32,000 nucleotides of DNA from Saccharolobus solfataricus (GCF_900079115.1 NZ_LT549890.1:600001-632000); one strand, 5' to 3'. Counted from the first letter of the stretch, positions 1-24,656 are shown. Program-made: numbers and translations. Notes: generated from the sequence alone by a model not told the origin.

Positions 1-2375
1 ATCCCGAAAATGAAGATGTAGAAGATATACCAGGGTATCAGACCTAGGTATGCACTCATTATTAATCCCATTACTACAGCACCGCTAACGCCTGCCTTTC
101 CGCCAAACTTCCATCCCAACAACGCCACAACTACCGTTACTGCAATCCCTATGATAGTCGACCAGGGCTGATATGCTGAGAAATTGTAGATACTGCTGTT
201 AGGCTGAATGTTGTTACTGAAGGGCTGAGTGTAGTTATAGTTGATTGTCGATATGTTAACGGTTGTTGTGGTAGATGTAGTAGGCTGGGTTACAGTGATA
301 TTTAGCAAAACGTTTTTGTTTACGCCCGCCCAGTAGATGTTGATTAATTCGTAAGGTGTGTCAGTCAGCGTAATCGTGACCTGACCGAATCCACTGGAGT
401 TAGTATAGCCTGTTGTGTACTGTGTTAATGTTGATGGGTTAGTGCCAACTGATATTACATATGCCTGATTTGCTGTGGCACTCTGCAGTATAATACCGCT
501 AACAAAGACCCAATTCAGTGCCAGTTTCCCCGCTCCATAGTAGAAACCTAAGCCTATCACTTTAGATGAATTCGCTATGTTAAGTGTACCACCGTTAATC
601 GTTAGTTGTAACGCGTTGTTAACAACGTTAATTTGTACTGTGTTGATACTGTTGTTATACCATGTTAGCCCTGTGAAATTGAATGGAATGAGATAATTCT
701 GATTTTGCGTAATTAATAGTATCCCATCACCCGCCGATAGCCAATAGCTCTTGAATTGTATCACTGATGAAGATGATATTATAGATGCATAAGCCCATGC
801 AAATGTTGAAGTTGTTTGTGTGAACGCCGTCATTGAAACGTTTGAAACTGGAGTGTTATAGCTGAACTGAAAAGTAATCGTTACTTTTGTGCCGGCTACA
901 ACACTATGGGGATACTGTGAGACAAAAATTACGGGCAAAGGCGATACGGGGTATATGGTTATCGTGCCTGTGGCACTACCTAGAGAAAATTGCCCCAACT
1001 GAATGTTAATAGTGTAATAGTAAGTAGTAGGGTTGACTGCATTTGCTGTTATTGTATAAGGTAGTGGCACAAAGCCGTTAGTTAGACCCTGAATATTTAT
1101 AAGTGTCTGAGGTTGCACAGCTAACGAATATCCCGCATTACTAGGATATTCTATTGTTGTCGAATTAGTCACGCTGATAGTCTGACCTGTGAGATAAGAT
1201 GGTTGCGATAAATTGACTTGCACAAGAACCGCAAATCCCGCGACAAAAACGGGGATTGTAACGTTCTCAAGAACCGTTTGTTGTTGTGTTACAAACTGAA
1301 ACTCTATCGTGACATTCAGATACCATGTATTTACGTTAACCGCCGGGTATACATTTAATAATAGGTATATTCCTTTAGGGGCTGAAACATAAGACACACT
1401 TCCGCTTAAAGGGTATAATGTTCCTGTCACGGAAAAGTTTTGTATTTTCATTATGCCCACAACACTCCATGATGTGGCATTAGTAGAAATGTTAAGTGGG
1501 TTATTGGCACCTGTAAAGCCCGCTAACATCTGTAGTCCATTCCCAACAACAGATGTGTAACTTAGTGTTGCTGTATAAGTTTTAGACTGAAAAATCGAAT
1601 ATGTTATCACCACCCACTGACCATAACCATAACCCGGACCTACATTCTGTGCATCGATAACGTAATTACTATTTACGGTATTCAGTGAGAGAGGGTAAAA
1701 TTGATTATTGATAACTTGACCCGGTATTATTGAAAAAGTCTTCAAAGTACCGTTATAGTAATAAACGTAAAGTTGGTTTGAAGAGGGTAAGTACCAGAAC
1801 CCTAAACCTATATATTGCCCAACACTAATTGAACCCACAGACACATTTAGCTGTTTCACACCGTCAAAGTATACGAATAATCTATATGTTGGGAAACTAC
1901 CTTTTTCCATATAAACCACAATCCCATCAGAGGCGTAAGGTGATGCGGGGGCATAGCTACCCGTAAACCCCGAAGGGAAATTTACACCGTAGCCTATGGC
2001 GATTGAACCGTATGATCCCGAATTACTTGAGGACGCCAATAACCATGTGACGTTTAGTGCGATTTGTGATGATGAAAGAGAAAGAGATGCGTTATTATTA
2101 ATGTACTCTTGATTCGGCAAAACTTGAAGGTAGTATTTGTTATAAACGCTTATATAAGTTGGGTTAAGCCAAGGTGCGGTGGAAAGTGTTGAACCATTAT
2201 ATTTAGAAGAAAAAGTAGAGGAACCAACTTGAATTGTCTTAGAGTATGTGAAGAAAGGTCCGGCAAAACCGCCTCCACCATCAAAATAAGGATGAGGACC
2301 AGTTATAACAGCGTTTGTGGAAATAGGTAAGATTAGTAGTGTTAGAAGAAGTAAGGATAATAGACTCCACTTCAT
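1..2375 (-). CDS. vp4: Fusellovirus VP4-like (SSV1 C792-like) large secreted Asn/Tyr/Thr-rich structural or host-attachment protein. The C-terminal end runs off the window
   Basis: ATG at 2375-2373 encodes MKWSLLSLLLLTLLILPISTNA, a signal peptide. No other ORF is listed anywhere in 1-2411, which fits one long frame open to position 1 (about 791 codons). The last visible residues (GLIPWYIFYIFIFG) are hydrophobic, like a C-terminal anchor. It sits after the C124-like gene, as in SSV1. Confidence 0.65.
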   Translation of the reverse strand, partial: MKWSLLSLLLLTLLILPISTNAVITGPHPYFDGGGGFAGPFFTYSKTIQVGSSTFSSKYNGSTLSTAPWLNPTYISVYNKYYLQVLPNQEYINNNASLSLSSSQIALNVTWLLASSSNSGSYGSIAIGYGVNFPSGFTGSYAPASPYASDGIVVYMEKGSFPTYRLFVYFDGVKQLNVSVGSISVGQYIGLGFWYLPSSNQLYVYYYNGTLKTFSIIPGQVINNQFYPLSLNTVNSNYVIDAQNVGPGYGYGQWVVITYSIFQSKTYTATLSYTSVVGNGLQMLAGFTGANNPLNISTNATSWSVVGIMKIQNFSVTGTLYPLSGSVSYVSAPKGIYLLLNVYPAVNVNTWYLNVTIEFQFVTQQQTVLENVTIPVFVAGFAVLVQVNLSQPSYLTGQTISVTNSTTIEYPSNAGYSLAVQPQTLINIQGLTNGFVPLPYTITANAVNPTTYYYTINIQLGQFSLGSATGTITIYPVSPLPVIFVSQYPHSVVAGTKVTITFQFSYNTPVSNVSMTAFTQTTSTFAWAYASIISSSSVIQFKSYWLSAGDGILLITQNQNYLIPFNFTGLTWYNNSINTVQINVVNNALQLTINGGTLNIANSSKVIGLGFYYGAGKLALNWVFVSGIILQSATANQAYVISVGTNPSTLTQYTTGYTNSSGFGQVTITLTDTPYELINIYWAGVNKNVLLNITVTQPTTSTTTTVNISTINYNYTQPFSNNIQPNSSIYNFSAYQPWSTIIGIAVTVVVALLGWKFGGKAGVSGAVVMGLIMSAYLGLIPWYIFYIFIFG

Positions 2376-2411
2376 TAAGCGATAAAAAATTATGTGACTT
2401 TATAAAGGGCC

Positions 2412-2777
2412 TTAGTCTATTAAACGTAGTAATATTGCTAAAGATACCAAAACGGCTACTAAGACAATTTCCGGGGCATATGCGAAAACATATTCATATC
2501 CAGAATTAACTTTCATATTGACATATAGATATATCTCAACTATTGAAAATAATATTACGGAAATCGCATTAAGAACTACTAATATGTGTCTAAAATATGG
2601 AAAATCCCTTATACCATTTTTTATTAGTAATAAAAAGCCTATATAGGCTAAGGGTATGTAGGGAATTGTGATCATAAATAAAAGGTATGAAATTGAATAT
2701 ATTATCGCAAAAAGTAAACCCAAACATACGGAGTAAGGAATTAAGAATAATAGGTCGGCTTTTAATCTTCTATCCAT
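2412..2777 (-). CDS. Small polytopic membrane protein (SSV1 C124-like by position)
   Basis: 121 aa and almost entirely hydrophobic helices. Synteny between the A291-like and VP4-like genes. Confidence 0.6.
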   Translation of the reverse strand: MDRRLKADLLFLIPYSVCLGLLFAIIYSISYLLFMITIPYIPLAYIGFLLLIKNGIRDFPYFRHILVVLNAISVILFSIVEIYLYVNMKVNSGYEYVFAYAPEIVLVAVLVSLAILLRLID

Positions 2778-2809
2778 AAAAAAAGAATTAGCTTAAAATA
2801 TAAAAATTT

Positions 2810-3727
2810 TCATAGACCATAAGTGGTTTGGCTACCATAAGTGAATTGATATTCATAACTCCATTGTGGCCATCCACTATATAATTGAACATTAACATAA
2901 TTGCTACCATAACTTTGTAGTTGTAAAAGGTCTGCGTAGTAACTTACACCAGATGGTGGTATATTTGCCGGGCCTACATTGTAGCCATATTGATTTGGAT
3001 AATAATATGAAAATTGAAAATACTCTATAATACCACCGGAAGCAAGAGGTAATGTTACTACGGGTGTGGAGTTATCTAAACCAGAACTTGTAGTAATCAT
3101 TTGAAAACCAGAATACATTGGTGAGTTAAATGGGTTTGGTAGCTTATATTGAAAGCCTTTATAAAACGAAAAGTTCGTTGTAAAGTATATATTTATCTGT
3201 GCGATAAAATATTGATTATAATTAAACGGTGTATTTGGGGCAGATAAGGATAAAGTGAAATAGTAATTTTGTATTTTTCCTAGATATATGAAAGATTGAT
3301 TGAAATCTTGTGAAATGAATTGACCATTTTTATATGCGGAAGTTAGAGTAGAAAACCCAATAACTCCATTGTTATAAAGAATTATATTAAAACCGGCTAA
3401 TATTATATTTCCCGTCCAAAGATTACTTTGTACGCTAAAAGGACTAAGAGCCAATCGAAAACCTATAACATCCTCATTTAGACTGTTAGGAATATATAGA
3501 AAACTTGCATTTTTTAAATAAACAGTCTCAGATAAACTATACATTTTGTTGAAAGTATTGGTTGAAGAATTATATACGCTATAACCTACCCCCGCCCAAT
3601 TGGCGTTAATTAACGTATAATAAATTTGTTGTGCACCTAGTTGGCTTGCAGATATAGCACCGGTAGGCGTTGCCAACATTAGTAACGCTAGGGATAGGGT
3701 TAGAAGGGCTAGTAGGTACTTCCTCAT
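2810..3727 (-). CDS. Secreted Asn/Tyr/Ser-rich protein (SSV1 A291-like by position), with many N-x-S/T sequons
   Basis: 305 aa. N-terminal signal peptide MRKYLLALLTLSLALLMLATPTGA. Composition resembles the VP4-like protein. Its own TATA (TTTATAAA, 3752-3759) sits 25 nt upstream. Confidence 0.6.
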   Translation of the reverse strand: MRKYLLALLTLSLALLMLATPTGAISASQLGAQQIYYTLINANWAGVGYSVYNSSTNTFNKMYSLSETVYLKNASFLYIPNSLNEDVIGFRLALSPFSVQSNLWTGNIILAGFNIILYNNGVIGFSTLTSAYKNGQFISQDFNQSFIYLGKIQNYYFTLSLSAPNTPFNYNQYFIAQINIYFTTNFSFYKGFQYKLPNPFNSPMYSGFQMITTSSGLDNSTPVVTLPLASGGIIEYFQFSYYYPNQYGYNVGPANIPPSGVSYYADLLQLQSYGSNYVNVQLYSGWPQWSYEYQFTYGSQTTYGL

Positions 3728-3763
3728 TGTAGGGCTAAAAAGGAGTTAAGTTTTATAAAGGGT

Positions 3764-4138
3764 CTAACTAACGCAAATATTATGTTTTTTGCAAACATGG
3801 TCTAGAGTCGAATCAGTGTTTCTAAACTCTTTCCCGCACACCGGGCAGACCTTTGAGTGTTCCGTATAACGGATGTGTTGTTTCAGACTAACGGAAGAAC
3901 TAAAGGGCATTAAGCAGAGGGGGCAAACGTAGGGTGAGACTGCTTTACTTGCCAGTAACTTATAGAGATAACCGCTTTCGTCTAACAATTGGGGATTATG
4001 GATTAACGCCTTGACAACAGCTCTAATTATTCTTTTCTGTTCCGGCGTCAGAGAATGATAGCGTTTCAGTTCTTCTAAAGTCACGTGAATCATAATCCCC
4101 TTATGATTACTCAGGTACTTTTTACTGCCTGACTCCAT
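3764..4138 (-). CDS. C2H2 zinc-finger protein (SSV1 B129-like)
   Basis: Two C2H2 units: CPLCLMPFSSSVSLKQHIRYTEH and CPVCGKEFRNTDSTLDHVCKKH. The track ORF extends to 4231 but overlaps the upstream gene by 110 nt. The internal ATG at 4138 (MESGSKKY...) is the more plausible start. Confidence 0.7.
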   Translation of the reverse strand: MESGSKKYLSNHKGIMIHVTLEELKRYHSLTPEQKRIIRAVVKALIHNPQLLDESGYLYKLLASKAVSPYVCPLCLMPFSSSVSLKQHIRYTEHSKVCPVCGKEFRNTDSTLDHVCKKHNICVS

Positions 4139-4739
4139 TCCTATCCCCCCTCCAACAGAAGTTATAAAACGGGCACTCAGCACACTCAGAATCTTGCTTA
4201 GACTTTCGCGGTGGTAAGATGTTTTCCTCAACTGAAATCCCGAAAGCGTTAGCCCTTGCCTCCAAGTCAGTCTCTGCCCAATCTCTCTTTATTTCTTCCA
4301 CCCTACCATCCGCATGAACGATTATTAAATACCCCGCCAAAGCATTAGCCATTTCAATATAATAATTCAATTGACGTAAGTAGTTGTTAAGTCTAGGTCT
4401 GTCTAACTCATCTAAATGTGTATACTTCAACTCGTAAACTGTTCCCTCTTCTTTGTCATAGACATCAATCTTCCCAACCACAATGAATCCTAAGGCGGTC
4501 TTCTTTTGTACTTTTACTTCAGTCTCAAACCCGTTTTTCTGTAGGATCCGCTGTAACCTCATATGAAGTCCAGTACCGATATGCATCTTCATTATCTCGT
4601 AATGACTCAGTTTCACCTTACCGTTCTTCCGCATCAGCCAACTTCTTCTCAAACATCTGGTTAACTCAGTAACCCATATCGTTTGTGTATCATTTGAAAC
4701 TATTTCATAATTATATATTATAGTGAGTAGTCTACTCAT
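4122..4739 (-). CDS. Virus-encoded Cas4-like / RecB-family PD-(D/E)xK nuclease with a 4-Cys Fe-S cluster signature
   Basis: N-terminal Cys (LTRCLRRSW), GKIDV (motif II Asp), YELKY (E-x-K), LRQLNYY (Q-h-x-x-Y), and C-terminal CAECPFYNFC (C-x2-C-x5-C). This is the full Cas4 motif set. Confidence 0.8.
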   Translation of the reverse strand: MSRLLTIIYNYEIVSNDTQTIWVTELTRCLRRSWLMRKNGKVKLSHYEIMKMHIGTGLHMRLQRILQKNGFETEVKVQKKTALGFIVVGKIDVYDKEEGTVYELKYTHLDELDRPRLNNYLRQLNYYIEMANALAGYLIIVHADGRVEEIKRDWAETDLEARANAFGISVEENILPPRKSKQDSECAECPFYNFCWRGDRNGVRQ

Positions 4740-5038
4740 TTCTTCCTCCCCTTATGCCTCCTGATTGCGAATATATTATTTAACGTTACAAGACACTCAA
4801 CAACATCTGCTATCAGTAGAAATATTTCAGTCTGATGCGGTGTAGGTAGCATTAAACCTAAAAGCAGTGCTACAGTAGCTAAATCGAATTTGTAGATTGC
4901 TAGTGTCCATTTATTCTTCATAAATAATTTTGCTACAATATTCGCCTCATGTGCACCCACATTAACACCTAATACTGTAGACCAATAATCGTTGAACTGA
5001 AAACCGTAATATAACAATATATCATATATCAGAATCAT
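4736..5038 (-). CDS. Small membrane protein (SSV1 C102b-like by position)
   Basis: 100 aa with about 3 hydrophobic helices and a basic tail. ATGA start/stop overlaps with both neighbours. Confidence 0.55.
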   Translation of the reverse strand: MILIYDILLYYGFQFNDYWSTVLGVNVGAHEANIVAKLFMKNKWTLAIYKFDLATVALLLGLMLPTPHQTEIFLLIADVVECLVTLNNIFAIRRHKGRKK

Positions 5039-5178
5039 GGTCTTCTCACCTTGAAGTAAATATAGAAATATTCAAGAGTGACCTTATTCATCTGACCATG
5101 AACACTAAGCAGATGTTCGATAACTTCACTTCTTTTGTCGAATATAGACCCACATCTCAAACACTGATACATAAGCAT
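5035..5178 (-). CDS. 47-aa single C2H2 zinc-finger protein (SSV1 A45 position). Not in the ORF track because it is under 60 aa
   Basis: Hand translation gives MLMYQCLRCGSIFDKRSEVIEHLLSVHGQMNKVTLEYFYIYFKVRRP, with a CxxC...HxxxxH pattern. Its ATG overlaps the upstream stop (TGATG) and its TGA overlaps the downstream ATG (ATGA). Confidence 0.55.
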   Translation of the reverse strand: MLMYQCLRCGSIFDKRSEVIEHLLSVHGQMNKVTLEYFYIYFKVRRP

Positions 5179-5426
5179 CACTCCACCTGCAATTTCCTTT
5201 TTATCGCAAGTCTAACGTGAAAGGGCAATTTGTATGAACCGAATAGATAACAATAAATGAGATGCTCCATATCAGACTGAAAGTAGAAATGTTGGTTAAG
5301 ATGTCTGTATTCTGTGTTGCAAACTGGGCATTTGGTTAAAATGTGGTTTTTTCTGGCGTGCTGTTTCACTGCAAACAAGGTAACAGAAGTAAACCCGCAT
5401 ATAGGGCACTTGAACATATAAATCAC
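5178..5426 (-). CDS. C2H2 zinc-finger protein (SSV1 A79-like)
   Basis: CPICGFTSVTLFAVKQHARKNH and CPVCNTEYRHLNQHF. Synteny after the C80-like RHH gene. Confidence 0.7.
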   Translation of the reverse strand: MIYMFKCPICGFTSVTLFAVKQHARKNHILTKCPVCNTEYRHLNQHFYFQSDMEHLIYCYLFGSYKLPFHVRLAIKRKLQVE

Positions 5427-5671
5427 CAGTTGCTAAGATACTTCTCTAACGCCTCTCTGATGATTTCGCTTTTGGTTTTCTTTAATTTTGACGCCACCTG
5501 TTCTAATTTGGCATTCATCTCTGGTGGTAATTTGAAAGAGACAACATCCATGGTCTGTGTCAGAGTTAGCTCTATTATTCCATCCTTTTTCGTTACTTCA
5601 ATTTTTCGATAACTCTTAGAATATGATGACTTGGGCAATTTGATGTACTCAACTCTTGCCTTCATTACCAA
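5423..5671 (-). CDS. Ribbon-helix-helix (CopG/Arc-like) DNA-binding protein (SSV1 C80-like)
   Basis: The C-terminal segment VVSFKLPPEMNAKLEQVASKLKKTKSEIIREALEKYL fits the strand-helix-helix pattern. Confidence 0.65.
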   Translation of the reverse strand: MVMKARVEYIKLPKSSYSKSYRKIEVTKKDGIIELTLTQTMDVVSFKLPPEMNAKLEQVASKLKKTKSEIIREALEKYLSNW

Positions 5672-5915
5672 TCACCTTGATTTTATGAATCCTGAAGATT
5701 TTGTTATCATGACTCTCATATATGAGGACTATTTTCACGCCTGAATCATAGAATAGTACTTCAGTCCATAGATCGCCTCTATTAACCAGCACGTTATGGT
5801 GTGGCTTTCCGAAAATCTCTAACATTTGCGATTTAGATAAGACAAGAGGTTCTTCAAATTCTATTTCTTCCTCTTTACTGTTAAAGATAATTTGTTTCAG
5901 TAGTTGCGTGTTCAT
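5649..5915 (-). CDS. Hypothetical early/T6-side fusellovirus protein
   Basis: 88-aa ORF in the co-directional, tightly packed gene string. I recognise no motif. Confidence 0.45.
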   Translation of the reverse strand: MNTQLLKQIIFNSKEEEIEFEEPLVLSKSQMLEIFGKPHHNVLVNRGDLWTEVLFYDSGVKIVLIYESHDNKIFRIHKIKVIGNEGKS

Positions 5916-5921
5916 TGCTTC

Positions 5922-6212
5922 TCACCCAAACAAGTACATTAGTTTGGCAATCTCAAGAAGTACTTCTTTCCTTATTGCCTCCTGTGTTTGTGATTCTGAA
6001 TCCTCATATACCTCATAGAGTCTCTTTATCTTTAATAGGACTTCTTTTAGTGCTGGTTTTTCTGTAAAAAAGAATTTTTTCTCTATTCTGTCATTGTCGT
6101 TTATTTCAATCTTGAGATTTAAATACTTTCCATACGTTTTCCTTCCTTCCGTTAATAAAAAATAAATTGAACTTTGGGACACAAGAACTTCTTTTTCCTC
6201 CTGAGGTTCCAT
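5922..6212 (-). CDS. Hypothetical protein, first gene of the minus-strand (T6-like) transcription unit
   Basis: 96-aa acidic, helical ORF directly downstream of the divergent promoter region. Confidence 0.5.
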   Translation of the reverse strand: MEPQEEKEVLVSQSSIYFLLTEGRKTYGKYLNLKIEINDNDRIEKKFFFTEKPALKEVLLKIKRLYEVYEDSESQTQEAIRKEVLLEIAKLMYLFG

Positions 6213-6319
6213 TTTCAGACCCTCTATCTGTCAATCTATCAATCTAGGTATATAAATTTTTCTGTCTTTCAATCCAACTATAAAGACGTAGATATATAAG
6301 AGAATTCTCTTAATAATCT
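6213..6319. promoter_or_regulatory. Divergent promoter/operator region separating the two provirus transcription units
   Basis: TATA-like GGTATATAAAT (6248-6258) serves the minus unit. GATATATAAG (6291-6300) lies about 25 nt before the GTG at 6320, giving a leaderless plus unit. The region is packed with ATCTGTC/TCAATCT words (6226-6245, 6260-6275, 6313-6319). Confidence 0.6.
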
Positions 6320-6559
6320 GTGGGGACAGAGGTGGTCGAAAGTAAAAAAATCGCAAAAAAGAAGACTACATTAGCATTCGATGAAGATGTCTATCAAGTA
6401 CTGAAGTTAGTATCTGTCTATCTGAACAGGGATATGACTGAGATTATAGAAGAAGCAGTAGTCGCGTGGTTAGTCCAAAATAAGGAAAAACTACCTAAGG
6501 AACTCCAACCAAAAATTGAGGAAATTAACAAACGATTTTTTCCCAACAACAGTAGATGA
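6320..6559 (+). CDS. Ribbon-helix-helix transcription regulator
   Basis: KKTTLAFDEDVYQVLKLVSVYLNRDMTEIIEEAVVAWL fits the RHH pattern. GTG start about 25 nt after a TATA box. Confidence 0.6.
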   Translation: MGTEVVESKKIAKKKTTLAFDEDVYQVLKLVSVYLNRDMTEIIEEAVVAWLVQNKEKLPKELQPKIEEINKRFFPNNSR

Positions 6560-6734
6560 TAGAGTGAAAGAATTGTTAACTACTATATTGGCGTTAGGTG
6601 GCAGTGCGGTAACAATACCCTATGCAGAGTTTCTAAAAATATTAGGTATATTAGATTCCAAAGAGGCCAGAGAGGCGTATGAAACGTTCAAAGTATTATT
6701 AGAGAGGATTGACAGATTGAGAAAGAGAGATTGA
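6516..6734 (+). CDS. Hypothetical small helical protein. Start uncertain: the track uses TTG at 6516, and GTG at 6564 just after the upstream stop is an alternative
   Basis: ORF in the co-directional string. Its 3' end carries the first ATTGACAGATTGA word. Confidence 0.35.
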   Translation: MRKLTNDFFPTTVDDRVKELLTTILALGGSAVTIPYAEFLKILGILDSKEAREAYETFKVLLERIDRLRKRD

Positions 6735-6772
6735 AAGATAGAAAGGTTTATAAGGGAAAATTGACAGATTGA
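6708..6772 (+). promoter_or_regulatory. Internal promoter bracketed by two identical 13-mers, ATTGACAGATTGA (6708-6720 and 6760-6772)
   Basis: TTTATAAG (6747-6754) lies about 25 nt before the start of the 61-aa RHH gene. The exact 13-mer repeat is 52 bp apart, followed by 8-bp-phased ATTGAnnn units (ATTGACAG ATTGATAA ATTGATGA). Confidence 0.55.
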
Positions 6773-6776
6773 TAAA

Positions 6777-6962
6777 TTGATGAGCATGGAAAAATACGTA
6801 AAAACAACTCTCAAGATAAGGGAAGATATTTTTTTGAAGGGAAAACTCCTTGCCTCAGCAAGGGGTGTATCTTTCTCAGAAATTCTGAACGAAAGTCTTG
6901 AGGCATATTTGAAGGCACATGAGAACGAAATTAGGCAAAAAATTTCAGAGGTGATGAAATGA
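6777..6962 (+). CDS. Ribbon-helix-helix regulator, a candidate autoregulated lysogeny/early regulator (SSV1 F55/E51-like class)
   Basis: [37 protein letters not shown] is a clear RHH pattern. The likely real start is ATG 6780 or 6786. The promoter is flanked by repeated operator-like words. Confidence 0.65.
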
Positions 6963-7132
6963 ACATAAATGAATTATACCTGGAGTTAGATGAGGACACA
7001 AGAGAACTGCTTAGTATTATACATAATATAAAAATAGATATTATCACTCAGAGTTACAATAAAGAGAAAGTAGAAAGAGCACTGTTCTTAAGCCAAAAGA
7101 TACAAGCTGAGCTCTATCAGTTGCTAAGATGA
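6959..7132 (+). CDS. 57-aa hypothetical helical protein (not in the ORF track)
   Basis: Hand translation gives [61 protein letters not shown] overlap with the upstream stop. Its stop abuts the next start. Confidence 0.45.
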
Positions 7133-7453
7133 GTGTCCATGTCAGTTGTTAGAAAATATAACAGCTTTCTTGATTGGTTAGCCGAAACTAAGGATGGACT
7201 TTCCTTCTTACTGAGGTATGATAAGGAATTAGAGGTACTCCTTATCATTTCAAGATTTAATGAAGGGATAACTAAGCACAGGTTAGAACAAGAGGCAAAC
7301 GTAAATGGAATAAGGCTGAACGAAATCTTATCCAGGCTGAGAAGTAATGGACTGATTTATAGCCTAACTGATGGGAAAAAACAGTTAATTTTCCTAACTG
7401 AAAAAGGTAAGGAAGTAGTTGAGTTAATTGCAAAACTTTCAAGAATAAGGTGA
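7133..7453 (+). CDS. Winged helix-turn-helix DNA-binding protein (SSV1 F93-like class)
   Basis: ITKHRLEQEANVNGIRLNEILSRLRSNGLIYSLTDGKKQLIFLTEKGKEVV fits a MarR/ArsR-like wHTH pattern. Start is GTG 7133 or ATG 7139. Confidence 0.65.
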   Translation: MSMSVVRKYNSFLDWLAETKDGLSFLLRYDKELEVLLIISRFNEGITKHRLEQEANVNGIRLNEILSRLRSNGLIYSLTDGKKQLIFLTEKGKEVVELIAKLSRIR

Positions 7454-7460
7454 TAAGTGA

Positions 7461-8393
7461 ATGAGTCACACTAACGCTAACTCTAACGGCAACTCTGACT
7501 CACAAACTACTACTAAAAAACTGTTTAATAATAGTGCTGTCAGACAGCTAGCTGTCAGACAGCCGGCCTATAAAACAAACTCTAATACTACCCCTTTGAG
7601 TCAGAAGGAAGGCTTAGATACGCAAAATTTGACTCATTCAATTAGTCTGTCAGACAGAGAGAAACTTTTGGAATTGCTAAAACAAGATAGAACATTACTA
7701 GAACAAGTAGAGATTTTGAAGTTGTTAGAAAGGATTAGGGAAGAAGGGTTAGTCGGCAATGCTATGATATTCTTTAGGGTTTCGTATGCATTAAAAGAGC
7801 TTTATGACAGATACTATGCCCCTAAAAAGCCTACTCTTTCCCCAAAACTCCAGGCTATTAGAGAGGCCATATTCAGGATCATTTTAGATGACTTGATACT
7901 TAGCAGGAAAATAGACGCCGAAACCTTAAGGCAATTAGGATATGAAGTCCCAAACCTGGAAGAAGTCAAAAAGGCTGAGAGAGTAGTCTACATGCCTATT
8001 ATCCAAAAGGAAGAAACTGAAGAAAAGGAAGAGAAAGAAGAGCAAAATGAAGAGACCGAGTTTGAGCGTGAGCTTAACGAGTTTGAAAACTTCCTCATGA
8101 AGTTTATCTTCATAGAGAAGAACATGTTTAAGAATGGATATATCGTTACCAAACCGTTAGCTGATCAGATATTCGAATATCTAGATAAGCTAATTGAAAT
8201 GGCGAATGGAAATGTCAAAACAAAACTAGTTGAACTTAAGGAGTCACTGAGCAATAATGCTCTAAACGAGAAACATTTCAGTTACACATGTTCAGCTATA
8301 GATAGACTTCCAATAGCAATCATCCCTAAAGCTGTGCGATTGGACATAGAAGAGCTACTTCAGAAGATGGTTAAGAGAAAAAAATTGAGGTGA
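7461..8393 (+). CDS. Hypothetical 310-aa early protein with a low-complexity N-terminus and a Glu/Lys-rich central segment
   Basis: Long ORF in the early string. I recognise no catalytic motif. It contains three CTGTCAGACAG palindromes in the first 200 nt. Confidence 0.55.
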   Translation: MSHTNANSNGNSDSQTTTKKLFNNSAVRQLAVRQPAYKTNSNTTPLSQKEGLDTQNLTHSISLSDREKLLELLKQDRTLLEQVEILKLLERIREEGLVGNAMIFFRVSYALKELYDRYYAPKKPTLSPKLQAIREAIFRIILDDLILSRKIDAETLRQLGYEVPNLEEVKKAERVVYMPIIQKEETEEKEEKEEQNEETEFERELNEFENFLMKFIFIEKNMFKNGYIVTKPLADQIFEYLDKLIEMANGNVKTKLVELKESLSNNALNEKHFSYTCSAIDRLPIAIIPKAVRLDIEELLQKMVKRKKLR

Positions 8394-8399
8394 CCCGCC

Positions 8400-8555
8400 G
8401 TGGCCGATTTTAAATTGAAGTATTGGGGCAATCAGACTGAGGACTACATTTTACCTAATTTCTATTTAGGGCGGGAATACTTAGTTTTAGGGAAATTATT
8501 AATTAAGTTAGCTCAATGGAGGGTTAAAGGGCTAATAGATTTTGATGTATCGTAA
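8400..8555 (+). CDS. Possible 51-aa protein (GTG start; SSV1 E54 position)
   Basis: Hand translation gives VADFKLKYWGNQTEDYILPNFYLGREYLVLGKLLIKLAQWRVKGLIDFDVS. It fills an otherwise empty 190-nt gap. Confidence 0.3.
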   Translation: MADFKLKYWGNQTEDYILPNFYLGREYLVLGKLLIKLAQWRVKGLIDFDVS

Positions 8556-8584
8556 AGATAACAGGAGTCGGGACTTTAACGAAT

Positions 8585-9034
8585 GTGATAAATGAGCACT
8601 ATTACGAAGGATTGCAGGACAAATATGATCTAACACTTTATGTGAAAGCTAAGGATTCATACTATCCTTTAGTATGGATTGATATCACGGGTTCAAGTTG
8701 GACTGAGGAACAAAGTAAAGAGAGATATGGGGAAAGCGTTTACGCCATCCTCAGTGCTAAGGTTGAAGTGGCAATAAAGCATGATGTGATGGGAAGAGTT
8801 TGGTTTATTCATTATAACGATACTGAGGATAAGCTCAAATGCATAAGTGCTTTACAAATCTTGAATCTTGAGAGACAAGGAAAAATAAAGAAGGATAAGT
8901 TTGAGAGAGACGCCAAAAGCGAATATTATCTTATTCCCGTTTCAATGTGGAAGAACTTAGTAGAGCTTAGAGTGGCAATTAAGGGTTTCTATCAGAGCTT
9001 TAAGGAGTATCTTACTAGGGTGAGCGGGAAATGA
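8585..9034 (+). CDS. Hypothetical 149-aa protein. A nuclease-like D...S-x-K pattern is possible but weak
   Basis: ORF with a GTG start. VWIDITG ... AILSAKVE loosely resembles a PD-(D/E)xK core but lacks the acidic residue. No confident assignment. Confidence 0.45.
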   Translation: MINEHYYEGLQDKYDLTLYVKAKDSYYPLVWIDITGSSWTEEQSKERYGESVYAILSAKVEVAIKHDVMGRVWFIHYNDTEDKLKCISALQILNLERQGKIKKDKFERDAKSEYYLIPVSMWKNLVELRVAIKGFYQSFKEYLTRVSGK

Positions 9035-9038
9035 TTAG

Positions 9039-9392
9039 ATGGTCTTCCGCAGGTCCACCAAAGGTCCATCAAAGGACCTGGATCATCTCTGGTCCTGTGG
9101 TCCTCTGGTCCATCTCTGGACCTATAATGGACCACCAGTGGACCTATGGGTCCTGGACCATCAGTGGACCTCTATCTCTGGACCTATAATGGACCACCAG
9201 TGGACCTATGGGTCCTGGACCATCAGTGGACCTCTATCTCTGGACCTATAATGGACCACCAGTGGACCTATGGGTCCTGGACCATCAGTGGACCTCTATC
9301 TCTGGACCTATAATGGACCACCAGTGGACCTATGGGTCCTGGACCATCAGTGGACCTCTATCTCTGGACCTATAATGGACCACCAGTGGACC
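9039..9392. repeat. Tandem direct repeat: four identical 62-bp units (9113-9360), a 32-bp partial unit (9361-9392), and a degenerate GGTCC-rich left flank (9039-9112)
   Basis: Unit starts counted directly at 9113, 9175, 9237, 9299 and 9361. The unit is TCTCTGGACCTATAATGGACCACCAGTGGACCTATGGGTCCTGGACCATCAGTGGACCTCTA. Confidence 0.95.
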
Positions 9393-9509
9393 ACAAGTCC
9401 ATCATTCTTTTTTCGCACTATTGAGGAATTTTTGCCGTCTTCTTTCAATTTCTTTACTGATATTCTATTAGAATGAGTATTTAACCCCGCGTGAATTAAC
9501 ATTCTTAGA

Positions 9510-9738
9510 ATGCCTAACTTTTACGTGGGTTCTAAATTCTACGTAAAAGAGATTAAAGGTAAGTATTATGTTTACTCAATAGAGAACGGTGATGATGGTA
9601 AGCAAAGGCACACTTACATTGGTTCTTTAGAACAAATCGTAAATGAATACTATGATATGAAATGCGGCCGCCGGGATTTGAACCCGGGATCACCGGCTTG
9701 GGAGGCCGGCGTCCTAATCCAGCCTAGACTACGGCCGC
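9510..9738 (+). pseudogene. int: N-terminal fragment of an SSV-type tyrosine integrase (Int(N)), split by integration. The frame reads through the antisense of tRNA-Gly
   Basis: MPNFYVGSKFYVKEIKGKYYVYSIENGDDGKQRHTYIGSLEQIVNEYY parallels the SSV1 D335 N-terminus (YILRERKGRYYVYKLE...ERYVGPLADVVESY). The following GRRDLNPGSPAWEAG is encoded by the antisense tRNA T-arm, as in SSV1. No catalytic domain follows. TATTTAA at 9479-9485 is a likely leaderless promoter. Confidence 0.75.
9663..9738 (-). tRNA. tRNA-Gly (anticodon CCC), intact. This is the integration target of the provirus
   Basis: The reverse complement is GCGGCCGTAGTCTAGGCTGGATTAGGACGCCGGCCTCCCAAGCCGGTGATCCCGGGTTCAAATCCCGGCGGCCGCA. It has a 7-bp acceptor stem, anticodon stem CCGGC/GCCGG with loop CUCCCAA, and T-arm CCGGG-TTCAAAT-CCCGG. 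A TATA (CTTTATAAAC) lies about 25 nt upstream on the host side. Confidence 0.9.
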
Positions 9739-9905
9739 AGTTTCACTACAAATTGTTTATAAAGGTTTATTTTAAGCTTTCTGATTATCAGCTTTTCCAG
9801 CGATAATCATCAAATCATTGGACCCTCTCATCATCATAATCTAATTTACTCTTCACTTTAAAAAGGCGAGACTTTCTGTTGGGTTTACTATTTAAAGACA
9901 AAAAT

Positions 9906-23703: not shown

Positions 23704-24245
23704 TCAATCACCTCTTTTTTATAGATGAAAATTCCATCCGAGAAGATACGTCTATCAAAACCAGATATCTTTGAAGCCGACTCGATATTAGCTGCAGTCT
23801 GAGCAACAGCCTCTAAATTCGGACCCTCCACAACTATATCTTCACCCTTCACGGTAACCTTGACGCCTTCCAATATTTGTGCCCTTCTAGTATTCTTCTC
23901 ACCTATTAGATTAGTTATTTGAACTTCATTCCCTACTACCTTTACAGATGTTGGAAAGTGCGTATATATAATTTTAAGGTAATATCTATAACCCTTTGTT
24001 ACGCCAGTTATCATATTTTTAATGTGACTAACTATACTATAGAAGACAGCCTTTTTTCGTCTATTAGCAAAAGTAGTCTCTAGCACTATTTTATTCCCAT
24101 CTAAACTAATTTGTATACCCTTTGCAAAGCTGAAATCTTTAACTACTTCACCTTTAGGTCCCTTTATCTTAATTATTGACCCCTTTAGATCAACAACAAC
24201 ATTTTTCGGGATTTCGATTTCTTCCCTCAAAATTACTATCTGCAT
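23700..24245 (-). CDS. rpl6: 50S ribosomal protein L6 (uL6)
   Basis: 181 aa with the two-domain L6 pattern. Operon position. Confidence 0.93.
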
Positions 24246-24254
24246 TAAAACACC

Positions 24255-24656
24255 TCAATACACGTATCCTAGTGCTACCCCACCTATTCGCAATCTTGCA
24301 GCTTCTTTATGGGACATTACACCTTTAGATGTCGAAACAATAATTATGCCTATCTCTTTCGATGGTAGATAACGTCTAACGTAATCTGGCAACGCAATCA
24401 TCTGTCTATAACTAAGAGGATATCGTGGAGTTATTGGACCGCACTTATTAACTCTTCCTAACAACTGTACTGTTATCTTTCCCCATCTTCCATCATCAAT
24501 ATATTCAAATTCTCCTACATAACCTTCCTTCTGCATAACTCTTAAAACATTTATTACTAATTTAGATGCTGGCATTATAATAGCTTGTTTATTCCTTCTC
24601 ATCTCATTATTATATATGGACGTTAATGCATTTGCCAACGGATTCACGAATACCAT
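24255..24656 (-). CDS. rps8: 30S ribosomal protein S8 (uS8)
   Basis: [17 protein letters not shown]. Operon position. Confidence 0.93.

Follow-up and report, generated by a model that had tools for sequence, protein, structure and literature searches.

The 62-bp tandem array in front of the integrase gene of the SSV2 provirus forms part of a larger cluster of short words, and its functional unit turns out to be the 7-bp palindrome WGGWCCW rather than the 62-bp repeat. Judged from the DNA sequence, array and cluster probably serve as a protein-binding platform of some kind. This reading is favored because of the perfect array, the word statistics, the A or T flanks of the words, their 11-bp spacing, and the clusters found at the same locus in SSV5 and SSV6. 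The initial annotation had likewise proposed a high-density binding platform; the general idea fits the retention of the words in SSV5 and SSV6 with diverged spacers, whereas the specific functions it offered as candidates fared less well.

The array in the SSV2 provirus

The window (32,000 nucleotides of Saccharolobus solfataricus DNA, NZ_LT549890.1:600001-632000) contains at positions 1-9710 a provirus of Sulfolobus spindle-shaped virus 2 (SSV2) in tRNA-Gly(CCC), with the integrase gene split, as usual for SSV-type integrases. Compared to the SSV2 reference, the provirus shows three substitutions and one 1-bp deletion, the latter frameshifting the nuclease gene, and the array is identical at 4.5 copies. 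In the host flank, one encoded protein has an identical counterpart in assembly GCA_000175555.1, presumably S. solfataricus 98/2. The features of the locus are summarized in Table 1.

The array is an already known and annotated feature of SSV2. GenBank AY370762 / NC_005265 lists at 2901-3181 a repeat_region 'repeated 4.5 times', which has 100% identity to the array in the window and the same copy number. That entry gives no function, and none is assigned to the 62-bp repeat in the literature found; the repeat has stood in the SSV2 record for two decades in this state. The genome paper of 2003 reportedly called the perfect 62-nt tandem repeat unique and without similarity to known sequences. 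This uniqueness no longer holds, given the counterparts in SSV5, SSV6, and the plasmid pARN4. New are the WGGWCCW word, its preferred spacing of 11 bp, the clusters of SSV5 and SSV6, the amplification history, and the decayed copy in pARN4. Two recollections in the initial annotation, integration of SSV2 into a tRNA-Gly gene and a repeat noted when SSV2 was sequenced, were right.

Table 1. Features around the 62-bp array (coordinates of the window)
Feature	Coordinates	Strand	Basis and remarks
SSV2 ORF 211, PD-(D/E)XK-type 'nuclease', last gene of the T5-type operon	8399..9034	+	Annotation, translations; here frameshifted by the 1-bp deletion near 8550 (gap versus SSV2 reference)
Degenerate left part of the cluster, six WGGWCCW (5 GGTCC, 1 GGACC), spacings 11, 11, 17, 8, 8	9051..9112	.	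Opening 41 nt match the start of the SSV5 cluster at 95% identity
62-bp array, 4.5 perfect copies; unit of five TGGACC and one inverted GGTCC	9112..9392	.	Tandem Repeats Finder, script, GenBank repeat_region
Overlapping ORFs 70, 55b, 55a, 68	9039-9251, 9146-9313, 9208-9375, 9270-9476 (span 9039..9476)	+	GenBank annotation; frame artefacts
Oligo-T run TTCTTTTTT, candidate archaeal terminator of the T5-type operon	9405..9413	+	Read from the sequence, directly after the cluster; putative terminator role
Conserved block TTTTTGCCGTCTTCTTTCAA, right border of the variable cassette	9429..9448	+	Upstream of int in nearly all fuselloviruses
TATTTAAC, matches the Tint consensus	9478..9485	+	Precedes the int ATG by 25 bp; located where A+T is highest (20% G+C)
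Int(N), N-terminal part of the SSV2 integrase gene, which integration has split	9510..9806	+	Annotation, reference comparison; viral sequence ends at 9710
Host tRNA-Gly (CCC), SSV2 attachment site	9662..9739	-	tRNA call, literature (glycyl tRNA)

Anatomy of the repeat and word statistics

Tandem Repeats Finder reported 9112-9392 as a tandem repeat with a period of 62, 4.5 copies, 100% matches, and 0 indels (score 562), and a script located perfect period-62 identity exactly at 9112-9392, comprising four identical units and a 33-bp partial fifth. The four identical units with a partial fifth described in the initial annotation were exact, its register starting at 9113 being equivalent to a start at 9112. 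The script also confirmed five TGGACC hexamers per unit (starts at 9117, 9128, 9139, 9154, 9165, and so on) with spacings of 11, 11, 15, 11, and 14; the array holds 23 of the 26 TGGACC copies of the window. The GGTCC-T-GGACC palindrome, noted previously as one per unit, lies at 9149, 9211, 9273, and 9335. In the left flank, the five GGTCC reported before were recovered at 9052, 9063, 9091, 9099, and 9107, together with a single GGACC at 9074.

The clustering is not confined to the perfect repeat. WGGWCCW matches the window 37 times, 29 of them within the 343 bp from 9051 to 9393, whereas dinucleotide-preserving shuffles of the whole window gave 12.4 matches on average and never more than 22. 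The array is also an island of 53% G+C (53-55% for the cluster) in a genome of 37% G+C.

For the word consensus, the non-redundant part of SSV2 was pooled with the words of SSV5, SSV6, and SSV10. At 81 of 84 symmetrised positions, GGWCC was flanked by A or T, which extends the word to the 7-bp palindrome WGGWCCW; its orientation, as defined by the central A or T, was mixed in the pooled clusters. Measured from center to center, the nearest neighbor was exactly 11 bp away in 22 of 39 non-redundant cases. The words run in groups of two to four at 11 bp, broken by steps of 6-9 or 14-17 bp.

The helical phasing of the words is local, not global. With a helical turn of 10.5 bp, one unit has its five words at 0, 17, 34, 189, and 206 degrees, and each successive 62-bp unit is turned by -34 degrees relative to the unit before. 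The earlier statement that most words occupy one face of the helix applies to three words per unit, while the other two lie opposite, and the phase coherence of the whole cluster is weak (resultant length about 0.3-0.45).

A CRISPR array was rejected on the basis of the head-to-tail identical units and the lack of unique spacers. An origin of the words from tRNA fragments was dropped by reasoning on the T-stem geometry, which does not fit.

Coding status of the ORFs across the array

The array is non-coding, and the ORFs annotated across it are reading-frame artefacts of the repeat, as the initial annotation had supposed. The period, 62 bp, is not divisible by 3, and the four ORFs (70, 55b, 55a, and 68) are spread over three frames. 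They matched no family in Pfam, and their sole PHROG match was phrog_23750, a 55-position profile. We take this profile, on our own reading, to be the SSV2 array ORFs themselves, because a homology search with ORF 70 among 5.8 billion proteins returned only ORF 70 and ORF 68 of SSV2. The 'ORF99' of SSV5, which is drawn over the homologous cluster, matched no family and not phrog_23750 either, though the DNA words are common to both viruses. A protein-coding tandem repeat was rejected on the grounds of the period and the absence of conservation at the protein level.

At the RNA level, the G+C-rich and self-complementary cluster region folds better than shuffled sequences (z-score -4.1), and it could act there as the 3' UTR of the T5 transcript. 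Pairing, however, explains neither the exact 11-bp spacing nor the W flanks.

Relatives of the cluster and its history

In SSV5 (7877-8087 of NC_011217), 20 GGWCC words in mixed orientation were found between the nuclease stop codon and the oligo-T run, with no tandem repeat and with spacings of 11, 11, 16, 11, 11, 11, 7, 11, 12, 11, 11, 11, 8, 11, 11, 8, 16, 11, and 11. SSV6 carries seven words in its E79-int intergenic region, which is the locus of the SSV2 cluster; they are degenerate and non-tandem and include GGACCTCTATCTCTGGTCC, nearly the junction of the SSV2 units. SSV10 has three words at this locus. Most fuselloviruses lack the cluster, and their GGWCC counts are zero or near zero. 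Conservation among fuselloviruses, a question raised by the initial annotation, is in this sense partial: the words occur at the same locus in SSV5 and SSV6, but most relatives are without them.

When the array was collapsed to one unit, the alignment of SSV2 and SSV5 was colinear; it started in the last nuclease codons (41 nt at 95%) and continued over further blocks and through the cluster to the conserved block. This colinearity argues that the SSV2 array arose recently, when a 62-bp block of six words from an older, degenerate cluster was amplified. Between SSV2, SSV5, and SSV6, the words are retained and the spacers diverged. The ratios of exact words to one-mismatch variants (12:1 in SSV2, 20:1 in SSV5, 7:2 in SSV6, and 8:12 in pARN4) point to purifying selection on the words in the viruses.

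It is unlikely that the array is a minisatellite devoid of function, generated by slippage during replication or by unequal recombination where the genome is most variable and dispensable. Several observations would agree with such an origin: the 100% identical copies imply a very recent expansion, unrelated inserts occupy the locus in different viruses, the cluster is absent from most relatives, and the copy in pARN4 is decaying. Slippage can explain the amplification in SSV2, which could itself be neutral, but not the older cluster, of which SSV5 has 20 intact words in mixed orientation with diverged spacers and a single one-mismatch variant. Neither the conserved W flanks nor the preference for a spacing of exactly 11 bp is in line with it.

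A BLAST search with the SSV5 cluster revealed one sole further place, pARN4, a conjugative plasmid of S. islandicus, with 167 bp at 70% identity. This copy is decayed (8 intact and 12 one-mismatch words) and is located about 200 bp upstream of a gene for a small DNA-binding protein and ~750 bp upstream of a pNOB8-type integrase gene; no tRNA gene or att site was found near it. The possibility that the pARN4 cluster is the origin of the plasmid was rejected, the published putative-origin motif TCTATACCCCC being 11 kb away.

No SSV2-like or SSV6-like arrays were detected in metagenome or viral contig collections. Of two metagenome scans, with patterns specific for SSV2/SSV5 and for SSV2/SSV6, one gave 0 matches and the other four chance matches. 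Scans with the nuclease protein yielded five loci in viral contigs and one in genome contigs, none of them a new locus with words. A generic four-word pattern was swamped by unrelated high-G+C repeats in viral contigs and provided analogies only. Exact-protein look-ups of Int(N), ORF 70, and ORF 310 for other lysogens or copy-number variants returned nothing on record.

The distribution allows one further, doubtful idea, namely that the WGGWCCW cluster is a mobile non-coding cassette of the Icelandic SSV2, SSV5, and SSV6 and of pARN4, always beside an integrase gene of one of two unrelated types, which recruits a host factor. If true, cis-modules of this kind would be new among archaeal mobile elements. 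Such a cassette might tether the element, act like a centromere, or serve as a sponge that titrates a host defense enzyme recognizing GGWCC.

The nuclease-int locus across fuselloviruses

An unbiased scan for pentamers placed the densest cluster of the whole genome at the nuclease-int locus in SSV2, SSV3, SSV4, SSV5, SSV6, and SSV7. The word of the top cluster was GGWCC in SSV2, SSV5, and SSV6 and GCWGC in SSV3, SSV4, and SSV7, with GCWGC ranking second in SSV6. In SSV1, the same scan identified the T5/Tind regulatory region, where the top cluster consisted of ATAGA at 4974 (T5 start at 4976, Tind start at 5177). The F55 repressor has been reported to down-regulate the integrase (T5) operon of SSV1, and we take the SSV1 result as a positive control at the level of the region.

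The GCWGC clusters of SSV3, SSV4, SSV6, and SSV7 were rejected as instances of the GGWCC-type architecture; they are compound perfect palindromes of overlapping words and not spaced by 11 bp. Other viruses have small (membrane) ORFs, palindromes or a short hairpin, or nothing at the nuclease-int locus. The regulator genes of SSV4 and SSV5 share 98% identity over 6.6 kb, with the int-cassette-nuclease module swapped. SSV3, whose cassette is the other (GCWGC) one, is recorded from strain REY15/4, in which SSV2 occurs naturally. A run of T5-T13 is present in SSV3, SSV4, SSV5, SSV6, SSV7, and SSV10 at the position matching the oligo-T run of SSV2.

Both pentamers are scarce in a further group of genomes. 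The Kamchatka/Yellowstone fuselloviruses (SSV8, SSV9, SSV15, NL01B.C01.01, NL01B.C01.06, MK054236, and M.14.25.SSV) contain 0-3 GGWCC and 0-1 GCWGC per 15-18 kb, compared to about 10 of each expected. In the Icelandic viruses, GCWGC outside the nuclease-int locus was counted 0 times in SSV2, SSV4, and SSV5 and once in SSV7, and GGWCC is only mildly depleted; pARN4 shows no avoidance of GCWGC (58 copies). Although GGWCC and GCWGC resemble restriction-type targets, the Icelandic isolates have them concentrated at one locus. The purge of the words together with their concentration at a single locus points to an undescribed restriction pressure in Sulfolobus populations.

A defense-related cassette, acting as a decoy or sponge or by other interaction with a host enzyme or methyltransferase recognizing GGWCC, would draw on the near absence of both words from the Kamchatka/Yellowstone viruses and on the 4-8 GCWGC kept at the locus by SSV3, SSV4, SSV6, and SSV7 in otherwise purged genomes. 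R-M systems specific for GCWGC are widespread in Thermoproteota, GGWCC-specific methyltransferases exist in other archaea, and SuiI of S. islandicus is a known type II enzyme. Its specificity is presumably GCWGC. For the GGWCC cluster this function is nevertheless highly improbable. No GGWCC system is documented for Sulfolobus in the R-M table consulted, and clustered cleavable sites should raise rather than lower the sensitivity to type II enzymes. Moreover, the depletion of GGWCC elsewhere in SSV2, SSV5, and SSV6 is mild (4-8 observed versus 7-12 expected), which suggests that their hosts simply have no GGWCC enzyme.

Candidate readers of the words and competing functions

SSV2 Int is 81-86% identical to the integrases of SSV3, SSV4, and SSV7, which are without the words, but only 44-45% identical to those of SSV5 and SSV6, which have them. 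In the comparison of the nucleases, SSV5 was the outlier, its nuclease being only about 44% identical to that of SSV2. The DnaA-like protein is 94-99% identical in SSV2, SSV4, SSV5, SSV6, and SSV7 regardless of the cassette, and that of SSV3 is only 48% identical, though its cassette type is that of SSV4. No SSV2 ORF with a phyletic pattern of SSV5 and SSV6 only was found. The small DNA-binding protein of pARN4 had no homologue in any SSV, and ORF 310, an SSV2-specific neighbor of the array region, matched no family.

The small T5/T6 regulators are unlikely as readers of the words, because those of SSV4 and SSV5 are 98% identical while the cassettes differ. Since no SSV protein co-varies with the words and a similar cluster is present in an Icelandic Sulfolobus conjugative plasmid, the reader is more likely host-encoded, or else a core protein common to many elements.

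A role as a replication origin or as copy-control iterons, with the DnaA-like ORF 233 or host Orc1/Cdc6 binding the words and melting the A+T-rich stretch, appears rather unlikely. No SSV replication origin has been mapped, and the layout is iteron-like and adjoins the stretch of 20% G+C; the DnaA-like gene lies about 1.2 kb off, across int. The authors of the SSV10 study suspected this locus ('Tori'), where one Tn5 insertion was non-functional. In unrelated phage contigs, GGWCC words spaced by 11 bp immediately follow a gene for a VapE-type primase-helicase, where an origin is typically located. In the 11 genomes analyzed, however, the cumulative GC and AT skews reached their extremes not at the cluster but in the T5/T6 divergent region and at the 3' end of int, and the extremes followed gene orientation; the GC maximum at the array edge in SSV2 is the array's own composition. 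The identity of the DnaA-like initiator does not track the cassette type, most fuselloviruses have zero or near-zero GGWCC, and the pARN4 cluster is 11 kb from TCTATACCCCC. The replication-origin iterons considered in the initial annotation therefore find neither skew support nor a co-varying initiator, and the cluster is absent from most fuselloviruses.

The end of the array is 118 bp from the int ATG (9510) and 270 bp from tRNA-Gly/att, in agreement with the distances estimated initially (about 120 and about 270 bp). The words might be bound by Int as arm-type sites, or by a directionality or architectural factor serving the att core. The cluster is always near an integrase gene (118 bp from the SSV-type int, and ~750 bp from the pNOB8-type int in pARN4, with the gene for the small DNA-binding protein in between), and it comes to lie at the very end of the provirus after integration. 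Against this, the type of word does not follow Int relatedness, and the DNA-binding protein of pARN4 is without an SSV homologue. In vitro, IntSSV1 and IntSSV2 need no more than short att/core substrates, which counts against arm sites; the N-terminal part of these integrases is described as a multimerization domain, and no arm-binding domain has been described. We consider such an accessory function distinctly unlikely. Arm sites, one of the initial proposals, are disfavored, but the nearness to two unrelated integrase types keeps an integration-related role alive.

Episome maintenance was also considered. A centromere-like or tethering array, comparable to R1 parC or the EBV family of repeats, would link the episome through its coated words to a segregating structure. 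The many short dimer sites about one helical turn apart, in a non-coding block of a low-copy episome, would suit this purpose, and SSV2 and SSV3, both from REY15/4, have different cassettes, as incompatibility avoidance predicts. No partition ATPase and no gene for a centromere-binding or adaptor protein is annotated in SSV2, however, where the neighbors are the nuclease, int, and ORF 310. No protein co-varies with the cluster, which is absent from most SSVs, and pSSVx is stably kept alongside SSV2 without the words. On balance, a maintenance function is improbable.

A genome-packaging signal, recognized in virion assembly and also listed in the initial annotation, is close to refuted. The cluster is a unique and conspicuous cis element, and SSV2 is reportedly without VP2 according to the SSV2 paper, which would speak for such a signal. 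The satellite pSSVx, which is spread by SSV1 or SSV2 as helper, contains one GGWCC and 0 WGGWCCW, though. SSV1 and most SSVs have no cluster, and SSV6 carries both VP2 and the cluster.

A proposed docking platform at the boundary of the T5 operon

The reading that we prefer, and hold tentatively, is that the cluster is a docking platform for a symmetric and probably host-encoded protein, and that it acts as a boundary or insulator between the end of the T5 operon and the late int promoter. The boundary role is favored because the cluster lies directly upstream of the oligo-T run and TATTTAAC, int is a late gene, and GGWCC is found at none of the other SSV2 promoters (all eight GGWCC outside the cluster are inside annotated genes). 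A separate integrase promoter (Tint) with the consensus TWTTTAAC has been published (PMC6080066). SSV2 int is expressed late, without basal expression, and is probably transcribed independently of T5. The stretch of 20% G+C, 50-90 bp from the array, is at the same time the int promoter.

According to this proposal, the cluster would be a cis-acting docking site for a DNA-binding protein with two-fold symmetry. Adjacent dimers would sit 11 bp apart in runs of two to four and coat about 340 bp, giving a nucleoprotein block at the boundary between the T5 end and the int promoter. The block may stop read-through from T5, prevent expression of the SSV2 integrase gene before the late phase, and insulate the end of the provirus beside the tRNA gene. 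Amplification of the array would simply raise the occupancy. Points against a platform role are that most fuselloviruses manage without the cluster, that phasing over the whole cluster is weak, and that no ORF is restricted to SSV5 and SSV6.

For fuselloviruses, neither an origin nor a maintenance site nor a control element of the integrase has been mapped so far. The 7-bp word and the degenerate forms in SSV5, SSV6, and pARN4 provide a precise probe for pull-down or footprinting, and the natural variants with 7, 20, and 33 words are usable for genetics.

Comparison with known systems

The parC site of plasmid R1 consists of ten 11-bp iterons that are bound cooperatively by a ribbon-helix-helix dimer (ParR), and omega of pSM19035 binds cooperatively and side by side to heptad arrays with words in both orientations. 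As in the SSV2 cluster, many short words about one turn apart or contiguous are found in non-coding DNA beside a promoter. In the R1 and omega systems, however, the genes for a cognate adaptor and a motor are adjacent; SSV2 has none, and its words are palindromes.

The phage contigs with VapE (L062, L089, and L129) share the pentamer, the 11-bp spacing, and blocks in both orientations with SSV2. They are unrelated phage modules of bacterial type, whereas SSV2 is without an adjacent co-varying initiator or skew support. Arm sites of lambda-type attP resemble the SSV2 array in that repeated sites are clustered next to int, at most a few hundred bp from an att core; unlike these, the SSV2 words do not co-vary with Int, and SSV-type integrases recombine short substrates.

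The operator repeats of F55 in SSV1 (T5/T6/Tind) are a fuselloviral word cluster bound by a small repressor and were found by the same scan. They differ from the SSV2 cluster in locus, in their ATAGA-type word, and in a far lower number of copies. The ORF99 region of SSV5 and the E79-int region of SSV6 have the locus, the word, and the 11-bp spacing in common with SSV2, with 20 and 7 words in non-tandem arrangement compared to 33 in SSV2.

Word Clusters Between the Nuclease Gene and int

In four Icelandic fuselloviruses (SSV3, SSV4, SSV6, and SSV7), 4–8 GCWGC pentamers were found clustered upstream of the integrase gene (int), at the locus occupied by the GGWCC-containing 62-bp array in SSV2. 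These clusters are built as perfect palindromes, such as GCTGCATGCAGC and GCTGCATATATGCAGC, and the remainder of each genome holds only 0–3 GCWGC sites. In SSV10, the top pentamer cluster consists of TACTAC/GTAGTA words in both orientations (~10 copies) and is likewise located upstream of int, at a locus matching that of the SSV2 array. The SSV10 authors named this region 'Tori' and suspected it to be an origin (PMC6080066).

SSV5 and SSV4 share 98.3% identity across a 6.6-kb stretch made up of T5/T6 operon regulator genes, with a further 6.9 kb at 82% identity; their int, word cassette, and nuclease are unrelated. The difference is thus a clean module swap. The coordinates of the clusters are summarized in the table.

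Word clusters and SSV2 open reading frames
Feature	Sequence	Position
GCWGC cluster, SSV3	L136	3627-3845
GCWGC cluster, SSV4	L137	7716-7918
GCWGC cluster, SSV6	L016	~4230-4290
GCWGC cluster, SSV7	L138	~3700-3760
TACTAC/GTAGTA cluster, SSV10	L142	~4200-4600
GGWCC cluster, pARN4	L156 (NC_006424)	24215-24358
ORF 126, SSV2 provirus	window	2412-2777
ORF 305, SSV2 provirus	window	2810-3727
ORF 310, SSV2 provirus	window	7461-8393

SSV2 Provirus Genes

Compared to the SSV2 reference, the provirus lacks one T of ATGTATTCGTA (window 8545-8555), and this 1-bp deletion frameshifts the nuclease gene ORF 211, leaving its first ~50 codons out of frame. Three substitutions (window 1208, 6973, and 7153) also separate the two sequences. 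The gene just before the nuclease gene, ORF 310, lacks homologues in SSV1 and SSV3-7 and matches neither a Pfam nor a PHROG family. The same viruses contain no homologue of ORF 126 and, apart from a weak 34% match in SSV7, none of ORF 305; neither of these two has a Pfam family (of the three, only ORF 310 was compared with PHROGs).

Pentamer Scarcity

In the whole genomes (15–18 kb) of SSV8, SSV9, and five further fuselloviruses (L151-L155), GGWCC occurs 0–3 times and GCWGC 0–1 times, with ~10 of each expected. SSV10 has equally few GCWGC sites and exceeds the others in GGWCC (six sites, as two triplets). These fuselloviruses come from Kamchatka, Yellowstone, and Lassen, and the near-absence of the two pentamers suggests that both words are under restriction-type counter-selection in Sulfolobus hosts.

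GGWCC Clusters Outside the Fuselloviruses

pARN4 carries a decayed GGWCC cluster of eight exact words and 12 one-mismatch variants, six of which are GGWTC. The cluster lies in an unannotated gap upstream of genes for a small DNA-binding protein and a pNOB8-type integrase, and adjoins one of eight copies of the motif ACTGGGGAGTTT. GCWGC is not avoided in pARN4 (58 sites).

GGWCC words, often GTGGTCCAC, were also found at a spacing of 9–11 bp, grouped in blocks and in both orientations, in the IMG/VR contigs L062, L089, and L129, as well as L074, L106, and L125. In L089, the blocks directly follow a VapE-type primase-helicase gene, a position likely to be a phage origin. All six are unrelated phage contigs of bacterial type, and they use the word and spacing of the SSV2 cluster independently.
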